In this document: positions 21,392-61,625 of the stretch, piece by piece | Layout: the number at the start of each line of letters is the position of its first letter | Position numbering within the stretch: position 1 is the stretch's first letter | Source: Escherichia phage ph0011 | Sequence record: OP557969.1 | Length of the DNA: 64,000 bases | Direction: 5' to 3' (one strand) | Position numbers and translations under genes: made by a program | The notes under the pieces: generated by a model | The model's database searches: none | What the model was told of the DNA's origin: nothing | What the model saw: the letters and a program-made list of their open reading frames with translations, nothing else

Positions 21392-21427
21392 AAATTGAGA
21401 CAGCACTGAAATGTATGATACAATTTA

Positions 21428-21464
21428 GTCATCTCACCAGCGGTGGTGAGGTGACATTTTTTTT
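21428..21464 (+). terminator. Rho-independent terminator after the tail fiber module
   Basis: 11-bp stem (GTCATCTCACC / GGTGAGGTGAC, one G-U pair), 5-nt loop, then A-TTTTTTTT. Confidence 0.65.
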
Positions 21465-21474
21465 CAAAACAAAC

Positions 21475-21792
21475 ATGGAGAAATACAAAATGGCTAAATC
21501 CAAAAAAGAAGTTAAAGTTGAAATTCGTGATCTAAACGATGAACAGCGTAAACGTCTCGGTGATGCACTTAACAACATCGTAGTCCAACTAACTTTTATC
21601 GATGATACTAAAGCATCTTTATCTGATTTTGTTTCTAGTGTTTCAGACGAACTTGGTATTGATGCATCCGATATCAAACAAGCGGCACAACGTATGTACA
21701 AAGGTGATTACTTTGACAAACAAAGTAAACTAGATAATATTGAAACTATTCTAAGTGTTACCAACAATCTTCCACAAGCAGACGATTACTAA
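21475..21792 (+). CDS. Hypothetical protein
   Basis: The track ORF starts at 21415 inside the terminator hairpin; the likely true start is MEKYKMAKSKK at 21475. Confidence 0.35.
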   Translation: MEKYKMAKSKKEVKVEIRDLNDEQRKRLGDALNNIVVQLTFIDDTKASLSDFVSSVSDELGIDASDIKQAAQRMYKGDYFDKQSKLDNIETILSVTNNLPQADDY

Positions 21793-28959: not shown

Positions 28960-35278
<6,319 letters not shown>

Positions 35279-55798: not shown

Positions 55799-56380
55799 AT
55801 GGCACAACAACAAATTGCATTACAACAAGTACGAACTGGTAAACAACGAGATTTACCAGATGCATTAGAAAAAGGTCAGATAGGATTTAGTACTGATGTG
55901 GGTCGTGTATTCATTGGTCTACCATCATCATCTGACCCAGCTAGTCTAGTTGCAGGAAGAACATGGACAACTGATCCAAATTCAGGAAAAGAAAACGTAG
56001 AAATAATTACAGAATTTTCACCGTGGAGAACGGTTTCCAAAATAGTCAATAGGCCATTTAAAGTGGATCTCCCACAAAATCAAGATAAAATTGAAGTTAT
56101 TCTTGATAGTGAGAGTCGAGTCTTTATTGATTATATTGCATATGATGATACTGAAGAGGTTTTAGAATCTGGAACAGTCCAAATTGTGGCGATTGGCTCA
56201 AAGGCGATGTTTGCACAGTCTAATAACACAAATCGAAATGATGCGATTATATCTATTACATTTGAAGATCCTGCATATGATCCAACAACTGGAAATATGC
56301 AATTCAATATAGTTAACTCGGATTATTTAAATGCAGGATATCATATAGAATTTGTATATCGTGGGTGGGACAAACCTTAA
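55799..56380 (+). CDS. Hypothetical protein (193 aa)
   Basis: ORF in track, followed by a terminator. Confidence 0.3.
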   Translation: MAQQQIALQQVRTGKQRDLPDALEKGQIGFSTDVGRVFIGLPSSSDPASLVAGRTWTTDPNSGKENVEIITEFSPWRTVSKIVNRPFKVDLPQNQDKIEVILDSESRVFIDYIAYDDTEEVLESGTVQIVAIGSKAMFAQSNNTNRNDAIISITFEDPAYDPTTGNMQFNIVNSDYLNAGYHIEFVYRGWDKP

Positions 56381-56400
56381 AAGGCGTCCCGCCTTTTTCT
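56378..56400 (+). terminator. Rho-independent terminator
   Basis: AAGGCG-TCC-CGCCTT followed by a T-tract. Confidence 0.55.
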
Positions 56401-56443: not shown

Positions 56444-58762
56444 ATGATTAACGTAACCAAGCGTAATGGAATGAAAGAACCGTTATCATTGGATAAGATC
56501 CATCAGATTTTATTTTTCGCTGCTGAAGGTCTAAGTGGTATTTCAGTTTCTGAAATTGAACTTCGTGCACAACTTCAGTTTTATGAAGGTATTGAAACCA
56601 GTACTATTCATGATATTCTGATTAAAGCAGCCGCAGAACTTATTTCAGAAGATACACCAAATTACCAATATGTTGCTGGTAGATTATTAAACTATAGTAT
56701 TCGTAAGCAAGTATATGGGCAGTATGACCCGATTAAATATGCTGCTCATCTTCAAGAAATGGTTGATATCAAAATATATGATCCTGAAATTCTTGAAAAA
56801 TATACTCTTCAAGAAATAGAAGAGCTTGGGCGTTATATCAAACATAAACGTGACGATAAATTTACTTATGTTGCAATGCGACAATGGGAAGGAAAATACC
56901 TTTACAAAAACCGCGTTACTAAGAAAATTTATGAAACTCCACAAATGGCATATATGACTATTGCCGCAATCATTTTTATGGAGTATGATCGTTCCGTTCG
57001 TATGTCATATGTTAAAAAGTTTTATGATGCAGTAAGTAACTTTGACATTAGTCTTCCTACACCTATTATGGCTGGTCTACGTACAAACACACGTCAGTTT
57101 AGCTCTTGTGTAGTTCTAAATGTTGGTGACAGCTTGGATAGTATTGGTTCATCTAACCACGCCATTCTACGTTATATTTCACGTAAAGCTGGTCTTGGTA
57201 TTAATATGGGCCGCATTCGTGCCCTAGACTCCGAGATTCGTTCAGGTGATGCAGTACATACTGGATTGATTCCGTTCATTGCAGCTACTGCTAAAACTGT
57301 TAAAAGCTGTTCACAAGGTGGTGTTCGTGGTGGAGCAGCAACTGTTCACTTCCCATTGTGGCATTTGGAATTTGATAACTTGGTAGTTCTTAAAAACAAC
57401 AAAGGAACTGAGTTTAACCGTGTACGTCAACTGGACTATTGTTTCCAAGTAAACAAAACTTTGTATCAACGTTTGGTTGATGGAAAGAATATCACGTTCT
57501 TTAGTCCTAATGAAGTTCCTGGGTTATATGATGCATTTTGCTCTGATCAAAAAGAATTTGAAAAGCTATATAAAAAATACGAATCTGACCAAAGCATCCG
57601 TAAAAAATCCGTACCTGCTGTTGAAGTATTCAGTACTCTAATGACTGAGCGTGCAGAAACTGGTCGCATTTATATTCAAAATATTGACCATGCAAACACA
57701 CACTCAACCTTTATTGAATCAATTGCACCAATTGAACAATCCAACTTGTGCCAAGAAATTGCACTACCATCTGTACCATTTGATGATATTAATACAGGTG
57801 AAGGTTTGATTAGTCTATGTACTTTGAGTGCAATCAACTGGGGTAACTTTGATCGCCCAGAAGATATGGAAACTGCATGTGATCTTTCTGTACGTGCACT
57901 TGATTCTCTATTGGACTATCAAGACTATCCAGTGGTTCATGCGGATCGTGCAACAAAAATGTACCGCCCGTTGGGTGTTGGTATCATTAACTTTGCATAC
58001 TTCCTAGCCAAACGTGGGTTACGTTATAATGAGGAAGCATTAGAAACAGTTAACGAGTGGGCTGAAGCATGGTCTTATTATCTAATTAAATCTTCTGTAC
58101 AGCTTGCCAAAGAAAAAGGTAAGTGTGAAGGTTTTGACACATTAAAATATGCTAAAGGTATCCTTCCAATTGATACTTATAAATCTGATATGGATGAATT
58201 AGTAACTAAAGAGCTAAAACAAGATTGGAAATCTTTGCGTGAAGATATCAAACAATATGGTATTCGTAATGCTACAACTATGGCTCTAATGCCAGCAGAA
58301 ACAAGTGCACAAATCAGTAACAGTACTAACGGTATTGAAAAACCTCGTTCTCTTGTAACAAAGAAACTATCAAAAGATGGTATTCTGAAACAAGTAGTTC
58401 CTGAAATCAATAAGTTGAAAAACAAATATGATTTACTATGGGAACAAAAAGATAACATTGGCTATCTACAAATTTGTGGTGTTCTACAAAAATACATTGA
58501 TCAAAGTATCAGCGTTAATACCAGTTACAATCCAGTACATTTCCCTGATGGAAAGTTACCAATGTCAACTCTCCTAACTGAGCTTATGTATGCATATAAA
58601 GTAGGGCTTAAGAACCTGTACTATCATAATACCAATGACGGTTCGGATGAAGTAGATGTTGAAAAAGTACTCAAAGAAGCATCTAAACCAGAATCAGGGC
58701 AGTTTGTGTTACCTACATTACCTGACTTGGATGAAGGTGATTGTGATAGTTGTAAAATCTAA
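56444..58762 (+). CDS. nrdA: Ribonucleotide reductase class Ia alpha subunit NrdA
   Basis: Extensive identity to E. coli/T4 NrdA as recalled from memory (VTKRNG...LDKIH ATP cone; PTPIMAGLRT; CSQGGVRGGAAT; C-terminal Cys pair). Confidence 0.95.
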   Translation: MINVTKRNGMKEPLSLDKIHQILFFAAEGLSGISVSEIELRAQLQFYEGIETSTIHDILIKAAAELISEDTPNYQYVAGRLLNYSIRKQVYGQYDPIKYAAHLQEMVDIKIYDPEILEKYTLQEIEELGRYIKHKRDDKFTYVAMRQWEGKYLYKNRVTKKIYETPQMAYMTIAAIIFMEYDRSVRMSYVKKFYDAVSNFDISLPTPIMAGLRTNTRQFSSCVVLNVGDSLDSIGSSNHAILRYISRKAGLGINMGRIRALDSEIRSGDAVHTGLIPFIAATAKTVKSCSQGGVRGGAATVHFPLWHLEFDNLVVLKNNKGTEFNRVRQLDYCFQVNKTLYQRLVDGKNITFFSPNEVPGLYDAFCSDQKEFEKLYKKYESDQSIRKKSVPAVEVFSTLMTERAETGRIYIQNIDHANTHSTFIESIAPIEQSNLCQEIALPSVPFDDINTGEGLISLCTLSAINWGNFDRPEDMETACDLSVRALDSLLDYQDYPVVHADRATKMYRPLGVGIINFAYFLAKRGLRYNEEALETVNEWAEAWSYYLIKSSVQLAKEKGKCEGFDTLKYAKGILPIDTYKSDMDELVTKELKQDWKSLREDIKQYGIRNATTMALMPAETSAQISNSTNGIEKPRSLVTKKLSKDGILKQVVPEINKLKNKYDLLWEQKDNIGYLQICGVLQKYIDQSISVNTSYNPVHFPDGKLPMSTLLTELMYAYKVGLKNLYYHNTNDGSDEVDVEKVLKEASKPESGQFVLPTLPDLDEGDCDSCKI

Positions 58763-58767
58763 ATAAA

Positions 58768-58787
58768 AATCCCGCTTCGGCGGGATT
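58768..58787 (+). promoter_or_regulatory. Stem-loop in the nrdA-nrdB intergenic spacer
   Basis: AATCCCGC-TTCG-GCGGGATT with no following T-tract; possibly an RNA stability or processing element. Confidence 0.3.
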
Positions 58788-58816
58788 AATCTTTCCGAAT
58801 ATTTAAAGGAATATAT

Positions 58817-59941
58817 ATGTCAGTTTTTAAAATTAATGAGAAATCTCACCTAGAAAAAAATATGTTTTTTGATGAAAGTGTTGACATTCAACGATTTGAA
58901 AGTGTGAAATATTCAGCACTAGAGAAACTAACTGAACAACAGAAAAGTTTCTTCTGGACCCCTGGTGAAGTTGATGTATCCAAGGATAAAATTGATTTTG
59001 CCAACCTTAATGATTCAGAGAAGCACATTTTTACCTCTAACTTGAAACGTCAAATTCTTCTTGATTCTGTACAAGGTCGTGGTCCAAACCTAATGCTACT
59101 ACCATATGCATCACTACCTGAATTAGAGAACTTTATTGAGACATGGGCATTCTTTGAAGGTGCTATTCATAGTAAATCATATACTCATATTATTCGTAAC
59201 ATTTACCCTAATCCATCTGAAGTGTTTGATACTATGTTGGACATTCCAGAAATCACAGATTGTGCGGCTGATGTGTCTAAGTATTATGATGAACTGGATG
59301 AGCTAGGTACATGGTATAAAGTACTGGGTGAAGGAACTCACAATGTCAATGGTAAAACTATTGTTGTTGATATGTACGAACTTAAAAAGAAAATGTGGTT
59401 GTGTCTGAATAGTATTAACATCCTTGAGGGTGTGCGTTTTTACGCTAGTTTTGCCTGTTCGTGGGCCTACGCCGAAAACAAGCTTATGGAAGGTAATGCC
59501 AAAATTATTCGTCTAATTTGTCGTGATGAAAATTTACACTTAGCGGCAACACAAATGATTCTTCGCCTACTTAAGAAAGAAGATCTAGACTTTGCAAAAA
59601 TTGCAGAAGAGTGTTATGATGAAGTACTGGAAATGTTTATGTCTGCTATTCGCCAAGAAGAAGCTTGGGCAGATTTCCTCTTTAAAGATGGTTCTATTAT
59701 TGGATTGAACTCTGAAATTCTTAAACAGTATGTTCGCTGGATTGGATCTAAGCGTATGACGGCACTTGGTATCAAATGTCCATATACTGTATCCAAGAGT
59801 AACCCACTACCGTGGACTGAACACTGGGTAAGTGGTAGTTCTGTACAGGTAGCACCACAAGAAACTGAAATCAGTTCTTATATCATTGGTGGTATTGTGA
59901 ATGATATTCAAGAAGATACATTCACACCATTCAAACTATAA
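58817..59941 (+). CDS. nrdB: Ribonucleotide reductase beta subunit NrdB
   Basis: Strong identity to E. coli NrdB as recalled from memory (FFWTPGEVDVSKD; WAFFEGAIHSKSYTHIIRN; NAKIIRLICRDENLH). Confidence 0.95.
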   Translation: MSVFKINEKSHLEKNMFFDESVDIQRFESVKYSALEKLTEQQKSFFWTPGEVDVSKDKIDFANLNDSEKHIFTSNLKRQILLDSVQGRGPNLMLLPYASLPELENFIETWAFFEGAIHSKSYTHIIRNIYPNPSEVFDTMLDIPEITDCAADVSKYYDELDELGTWYKVLGEGTHNVNGKTIVVDMYELKKKMWLCLNSINILEGVRFYASFACSWAYAENKLMEGNAKIIRLICRDENLHLAATQMILRLLKKEDLDFAKIAEECYDEVLEMFMSAIRQEEAWADFLFKDGSIIGLNSEILKQYVRWIGSKRMTALGIKCPYTVSKSNPLPWTEHWVSGSSVQVAPQETEISSYIIGGIVNDIQEDTFTPFKL

Positions 59942-59953
59942 AATAAAACTAAC

Positions 59954-59978
59954 AGGGATTCATAGAATCCCTTTTCTT
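59954..59978 (+). terminator. Rho-independent terminator after nrdB
   Basis: AGGGATTC-ATA-GAATCCCT followed by TTTCTT. Confidence 0.6.
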
Positions 59979-61594: not shown

Positions 61595-61625
61595 AAAAAA
61601 GGAGCAACATATTGTTGCTCCTTTA
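61595..61625. terminator. Bidirectional terminator between convergent genes
   Basis: GGAGCAACA-TAT-TGTTGCTCC flanked by an A-tract and T-rich sequence. Confidence 0.6.

Follow-up and report, generated by a model that had tools for sequence, protein, structure and literature searches.

The nrdA–nrdB junction

The DNA analysed here, called the window in the following, is a stretch of 64,000 nucleotides from Escherichia phage ph0011 (sequence record OP557969.1) with a G+C content of 34%. The genes of the two RNR subunits follow each other on its + strand, and their spacer, which measures 54 nt from the nrdA stop codon to the nrdB ATG, holds an inverted repeat (Table 1). The repeat begins 5 nt 3' of the nrdA stop codon, in the same (+) orientation as nrdA, and ends 18 nt before the Shine-Dalgarno (SD) sequence and 29 nt before the ATG of nrdB. 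It forms a stem of 8 bp with five G-C and three A-U pairs, and the UUCG loop on top is closed by a C-G pair (GC-TTCG-GC at 58774-58781), which places the cap in the C(UUCG)G class of tetraloops. The linker between the stop codon and the stem makes up an A-run together with the initial AA of the stem, and this run becomes a T-tract when read on the minus strand.

The 34-nt segment that contains the hairpin folds with -13.6 kcal/mol (z = -3.4), and one of 200 shuffled sequences folds equally well. The energy of the stem on the + strand ranges from -12.6 to -13.6 kcal/mol, and its arms are paired with a probability of 0.98 in a context of 180 nt. Thus a stable G+C-rich stem-loop, as expected of an intrinsic terminator, is present on the transcribed strand. 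The first-pass annotation had described an 8-bp GC-rich stem with a TTCG loop in a 54-nt spacer between nrdA and nrdB, and both the anatomy and the coordinates prove exact, with the identities of the two genes borne out by Pfam.

Table 1. Features at and around the nrdA–nrdB junction of the window
Feature	Position	Strand	Basis
Hairpin AAAAGGCG-tcc-CGCCTTTT followed by TCTTCC, just 5' of nrdA	56379..56397	+	hairpin scan
nrdA, 772 aa, class Ia RNR large subunit	56444..58762	+	ORF list; Pfam ATP-cone, Ribonuc_red_lgN, Ribonuc_red_lgC, E = 2e-121
nrdA stop codon TAA	58760-58762	+	sequence
A-rich linker ATAAA, nrdA stop to stem	58763..58767	+	sequence
Post-nrdA hairpin AATCCCGC-TTCG-GCGGGATT	58768..58787	+	sequence, folding, covariation
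5' arm of the hairpin, AATCCCGC	58768-58775
Loop of the hairpin, TTCG	58776-58779
3' arm of the hairpin, GCGGGATT	58780-58787
Degenerate U-rich tail AAUCUUUCC, remnant of the terminator U-tract of relatives	58788..58796	+	tail scoring; same variant in vB_Ec-M-J and CMSTMSU
nrdB Shine-Dalgarno sequence AAGGA, 6 nt before ATG	58806..58810	+	sequence; unpaired probability ~0.5
nrdB, 374 aa, RNR small subunit	58817..59941	+	ORF list; Pfam Ribonuc_red_sm, E = 9e-47
Canonical terminator after nrdB, AGGGATTC-ata-GAATCCCT followed by TTTCTTAT	59954..59972	+	terminator scan

Conservation and covariation of the hairpin

The nrdA–nrdB junction matches the Asteriusvirus jumbo coliphages 121Q, PBECO4, G17 and UE-S1 at 90-92%, and more distantly the Eneladusvirus and Alcyoneusvirus (RaK2-like) phages. 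Judged by this similarity, the window belongs to a jumbo coliphage of the Asteriusvirus type, in the 121Q/PBECO4 group. For comparison, the post-nrdA region was collected from eight relatives in GenBank and from IMG/VR contigs found via the C-terminus of NrdA. A hairpin follows nrdA in all relatives in which the NrdA C-terminus is at least 66% identical, which are genomes of 340-380 kb or fragments thereof, and its distance from the stop codon is 3-11 nt in these relatives and 97 nt in RaK2. All of them share a TCCC...GGGA core except EJP2, in which an unrelated, also terminator-shaped, hairpin stands after nrdA. The hairpin was not found in the more distant phage contigs, with an identity of the NrdA C-terminus of 61% or less.

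Base pairs were counted in an alignment of the arms only, with the loops excised and the arms set in the register of the conserved TCCC/GGGA, a choice that favours the structure; in this alignment 96% of the cells are paired. The same hairpins were recovered by an independent energy search on each sequence. MAFFT alignments of the whole spacer were out of structural register and were not used for the counts. Both sides change in three of the eight pairs (A-U/G-C; G-C/A-U/C-G; U-A/C-G), the covariation score is reached by none of 500 shuffles, and a shift of the partner by 1-3 columns brings pairing down to 25-56%. Compensated variants of the stem include CCCGC/GCGGG, CCCAC/GTGGG, CCCGT/ACGGG and CCCCT/AGGGG, as well as ATCCC/GGGAT versus GTCCC/GGGAC. 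The G-U pairs, found at the outer pair in four distinct sequences and also in homologue L016, are compatible with RNA of the + strand only. The post-nrdA stem-loop is real and conserved.

The loop behaves differently from the stem. TTCG, CACG, GAAA, ACT, TAT, TGA, CTAGT, CAAGT, CATGT, CACGT, TATAT and AATTAA are all found among the homologues, and with three triloops, five pentaloops and one hexaloop besides the tetraloops, the identity of the loop is not kept by selection among them. Since the loop is not conserved, the UUCG tetraloop would be a stabilising cap rather than a recognition element. Nor is there an excess of CTTCGG in the window (7 found versus 7.7 expected). A permissive Rfam scan of 58600-58950 gave best hits of 12-26 bits, with gathering thresholds of 41-65. 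A repeat of the REP type was also considered and rejected, as a search of the 64-kb window with a covariance model of six homologues recovers no further copy, with E > 4 for the best of the remaining hits; the alignment of this model mixed both strands and was left out of the pair counts.

The tail of the hairpin

The terminator scan required at least five T in the 8 nt after a stem. The post-nrdA hairpin on the + strand is not called terminator-like at this threshold, with four T among the 8 nt 3' of the stem (AATCTTTC) and no unbroken U-run. Taken from the last G-C pair onward, the RNA sequence is UUAAUCUUUC, with 6 U in 10 and A or U at eight of the first nine positions. The statement of the first-pass annotation that no U-tract follows the stem is thus right as to an uninterrupted run and goes too far as to the U-richness of the RNA 3' of the last G-C pair. 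The minus strand of the same palindrome does score as terminator-like, since its tail TTTATTTAGA (TTTATTT) has 6 T of 8.

Most of the homologues are better equipped. Twelve of the 18 distinct ones have 5-7 T among the first 8 nt past the stem, for example TTTTTATC (BF), TTTTTTGT, GTTTTT and TTATTTT, and in four further ones a T-run starts within the 3' arm. As far as sequence tells, these tails have the anatomy of intrinsic terminators. The near-identical hairpin of G17 and 121Q, with the tail ATTATTTC, passes the T threshold. The window tail has the lowest weighted T-score among all homologues, the score being a formula of the d'Aubenton-Carafa type that serves for ranking only. Its variant AATCTTTCC is common to vB_Ec-M-J and CMSTMSU, and is probably also present in TH47, which has the same identity; being common to several phages, the weak tail appears to be a stable feature of a small subclade. 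The homologues L020 and L024 have likewise poor tails. With so poor a U-tract, the hairpin could not be an efficient terminator in this genome. In CMSTMSU (MH494197), the homologue of 58770-58785 has one C fewer in the 5' arm and one G fewer in the 3' arm, a symmetric shortening that leaves the stem paired (T-CCGC...GC-GGA); the record is flagged UNVERIFIED, and a homopolymer sequencing error is possible.

The homologous hairpin is labelled as a terminator in three independent GenBank records, those of vB_EcoM_G17 (MK327931), UE-S1 (ON568341) and Salmonella phage Munch (MK268344), although these labels are computational predictions; that of G17 comes from ARNold with a value of -14.4 (method in PMC6563267). 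In all three the hairpin occupies the same spot a few nucleotides past the nrdA stop codon and has the same TCCC..GGGA core, and the stem-loop of G17 differs from that of the window by one base, at the outermost pair. Their tails are ATTATTTC in G17, GTTTTT in UE-S1 and TTTTCTTTC in Munch, versus AATCTTTCC in the window. Going by this orthology, the hairpin is an already known element, of which the window appears to hold an ordinary, weak-tailed copy. The first-pass annotation preferred an mRNA stabiliser, a processing site or a coupling element to a terminator; this preference is disfavoured by the comparison with relatives, since most orthologues bear TTTTT-type tracts and three records annotate a terminator, of which the window would hold a weakened copy.

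Hairpins and promoters elsewhere in the window

Hairpins of at least this strength occur at 16 loci on the + strand of the window, versus 1.1 ± 0.9 in dinucleotide shuffles, and a hairpin lies at most 40 nt past the stop codon in 19 of 61 + strand genes, where about three are expected from the background density. Short distances between stop codon and hairpin are general in this compact genome. Because post-gene hairpins are many and the stronger ones have T-rich tails in most cases, the phage would seem to use such terminators routinely. The hairpin just 5' of nrdA overlaps the stop codon of the preceding gene. As in the window, a terminator-shaped hairpin stands after nrdB in those relatives whose locus extends that far, and the post-nrdB motif GGGATTC...GAATCCC is retained in the close relatives UE-S1, G17 and JNE01. 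The hairpins after nrdA and nrdB contain the same hexamers in swapped order (AATCCC...GGGATT versus GGGATT...AATCCC), and their 5' arms are mutually complementary across nrdB; the swap is probably a coincidence.

Two other hairpins on the + strand deserve mention. That at 35204-35234, which has a 13-bp stem of -18.4 kcal/mol and is among the strongest in the window, lies 12 nt past a gene end; the sequence after it, AAATTAAAAAAA, lacks any T-tract, and this hairpin is a better case of the T-tract-less kind than the post-nrdA one. That at 21428-21455, with ATTTTTTTT after it, is very stable (-19.3 kcal/mol), has a 12-bp stem and a GCGG loop, and falls just within the start of a crude ORF call (21415-21792); possible explanations are a wrongly called start and a terminator within the 5' end of the gene, as in T4 mobE.

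No sigma70-like promoter was found on the + strand between 58500 and 58816. A near-consensus sigma70-like site lies inside nrdA at 57042-57069 (+), 1.7 kb 5' of nrdB, with TTGACA and TATTAT 16 nt apart and 11 of 12 matches; promoter-like matches in the window number 19 versus 22.8 by shuffle expectation and show no excess. A promoter motif 'TGAAACG...TATA' has been described at genes of DNA metabolism in the relatives CBB and GAP32 (PMC5259590). The window has one copy of this motif, a number expected by chance; the copy lies on the minus strand and not before nrdB.

An intervening ORF in related phages

In about half of the relatives, an ORF of 257 aa (~770 bp) lies between the post-nrdA hairpin and nrdB. 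It is found at 2009-2782 of the UE-S1 locus (L001), and at the same position in the relatives L007, L008, L011, L013, L017, L018, L021, L023, L024 and L025, whereas the window, unlike UE-S1, lacks it (58788 to 58816). In L016, another insert of about this size takes its place. The product of the ORF is internally repetitive, with units of ~35 aa such as ..DFI.EKW...D......YQ.LS., has no match in Pfam or PDB, and falls in PHROG 3532 (function unknown). Its divergence follows that of NrdA and NrdB, with 80% identity where these have 85% and 63-67% where they have 70-72%. The ORF was considered as a homing endonuclease like MobE, an identity that was rejected on the missing Pfam and PDB matches and on this parallel divergence. 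As its divergence tracks NrdA and NrdB, the ORF looks ancestral and lost in the lineage of the window, and not mobile. Its presence in about half of the relatives also implies that conservation ties the hairpin to the end of nrdA rather than to the start of nrdB.

Alternative readings of the hairpin

A leaky intrinsic terminator, as argued below, is not the sole function that could be assigned to the hairpin. It could be a purely post-transcriptional element without any termination, which blocks 3'-5' exonucleases once an endonuclease (e.g. RNase E) has cut in the AU-rich spacer; such an element would either make the nrdA segment more stable than nrdB or mark a site of processing. The extraordinary stability of UUCG hairpins was first noticed in T4 mRNA (PMC4371310), and the C(UUCG)G hairpin of the window is very stable, has the weakest U-tail of its clade, is flanked on both sides by AU-rich single-stranded sequence, and is kept even where the tail is poor, as in the subclade of the window, L020 and L024. 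However, a canonical T-tract right after the stem, which most orthologues retain, is needless for a pure exonuclease barrier; the loop sequence varies, and no cleavage signal is identifiable from the sequence. This reading is on balance rather unlikely. Very unlikely is a terminator of the minus strand, or a bidirectional one, that stops antisense transcription into nrdA. The upstream A-run is TTTATTT on that strand, which is the only one to score as terminator-like (6 T of 8) and folds with -12.2 kcal/mol (z = -3.5), but no minus-strand gene lies upstream in that direction before a bidirectional terminator at 61598-61624. In addition, the G-U pairs of the homologues (four distinct outer-pair sequences and L016) become C-A mismatches on the minus strand, and the TAA stop codon and AT-rich sequence confound the A-run, in whose place the relatives do not always have an A-rich stretch.

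It is more improbable still that the hairpin sets the translation of nrdB as a coupling or RBS-control element, although the short spacer that holds it separates two subunits of one enzyme, and although the minimum free energy fold of the window pairs UUCC (58793-58796) with GGAA of the SD sequence. Neither the SD sequence nor the start codon of nrdB is contained in the stem, which ends 18 and 29 nt short of them, and the nrdA stop and the nrdB start do not overlap. The weak UUCC/GGAA pairing is missing in G17, and about half of the relatives have ~770 bp between the hairpin and nrdB. Sequestration of the SD sequence was rejected on these grounds, as the hairpin is clear of the ribosome binding site of nrdB and the weak pairing is not conserved, and a coupling element, as envisaged in the first-pass annotation, is not supported. 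A chance inverted repeat without function has a negligible probability. Perfect inverted repeats of 8 bp with a short loop arise about once per 64 kb of random sequence, but a G+C-rich stem stands out in a genome of 34% G+C, loci of such strength are 16 where 1.1 are expected, and the position is conserved; covariation of the stem in homologues across genera refutes this reading.

A probable leaky terminator after nrdA

The hairpin is best read as a leaky intrinsic (Rho-independent) terminator or attenuator, the local copy of the post-nrdA terminator hairpin of RaK2/121Q-like jumbo phages, effective in RNA of the + strand, with a probability of roughly 0.65. A fraction of the RNA polymerases that finish nrdA would be released at the U-rich UUAAUCUUU, yielding transcripts that end after nrdA. 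The very stable C(UUCG)G hairpin would then cap these transcripts and shield them from 3' exonucleases; a terminator hairpin is a 3' protective cap, so that the 'stabiliser' of the first-pass annotation is compatible with a terminator, and would be a consequence of it. The other polymerases would read through into nrdB. Leakiness may have two sources. One is the eroded U-tract, and the other is the distance of 5 nt between the nrdA stop codon and the stem, at which a ribosome that finishes nrdA and trails the polymerase closely would sit on the 5' arm and keep it from folding. Since a ribosome near the stop codon would block folding, relatives with good U-tracts could still express nrdB. With 29 nt from the stem to the ATG and no sigma70-like promoter there, nrdB probably relies on read-through of the hairpin. 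Against termination speaks the tail on the + strand, which fails the simple scan and ranks lowest in weighted T-score among the homologues. As at least three other phages stably keep the weak tail, termination may be negligible here and selection may act on the hairpin only. The literature searched yielded no RNA-end or RNA-seq data for any Asteriusvirus.

There are some reports on comparable elements. T4 has a weak terminator just past nrdA, in the 5' end of mobE, which terminates 30-50% of transcripts (Wilson & Edgell 2009, PMC2790892; PMC2988022). Its stem of 9 bp carries a loop of 4 nt and is followed by a short poly(U), and the terminator has been proposed to modulate the level of nrdB transcripts (PMC2790892, PMC2988022). 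By analogy, this terminator seems to be the closest characterised counterpart of the window hairpin, which likewise follows nrdA directly and has a loop of 4 nt and a short or poor U-tract. The two phages belong to unrelated lineages, and the likeness is one of position and shape. T4 has a middle promoter for nrdB downstream, whereas the window has no room for one, and the terminator of T-even phages goes with mobE, whereas the hairpin of the jumbo phages is present with or without an intervening ORF. The C(UUCG)G hairpins of T4 mRNA (PMC4371310) resemble that of the window in having a UUCG loop closed by C-G between cistrons of a phage mRNA; the loop varies among the homologues of the window hairpin, however, and CTTCGG is not enriched, so that the tetraloop would not define the element. 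In the related jumbo phage PA5oct, transcription depends on the host RNA polymerase, and stem-loop terminators are found at transcript stops (PMC7318152).

The effect of a nearby stop codon has been shown for lambda tR2 in E. coli, where termination fell from ~90% to <10% when the stop codon was moved from 28 to 5 bp before the terminator (Li et al. 2016, PMC4824070). This effect depends on the ribosome and needs translation of the upstream gene (PMC4824070). The distance of 5 nt in the window equals that in the W28p construct of lambda tR2 (PMC4824070), although these constructs were engineered in E. coli. The conserved spacing of 3-11 nt might accordingly make the leaky terminator a translation-gated attenuator, in which polymerases followed by a ribosome read through and uncoupled, untranslated transcripts are terminated. 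This extension is tentative, and the odds are against it.

Implications

For annotation, the hairpin should be labelled as a post-nrdA terminator hairpin that is conserved and probably leaky, rather than as a new regulatory RNA; its significance beyond annotation is slight. In one clade of jumbo phages, the genes for both subunits of an enzyme have retained a terminator-shaped hairpin between them, and many members of the clade have no room for a downstream promoter. The locus offers a natural series, from strong to eroded U-tracts and with or without an intervening ORF, for the effects of leakiness and of ribosome proximity on the ratio of the two subunits. If translation gating were true, the eroded U-tract would be a retuning that came once the ancestral ORF in front of nrdB, which had kept the hairpin apart from it, was lost, and the synthesis of NrdB would be tied to productive translation of NrdA without any protein or small-molecule sensor.
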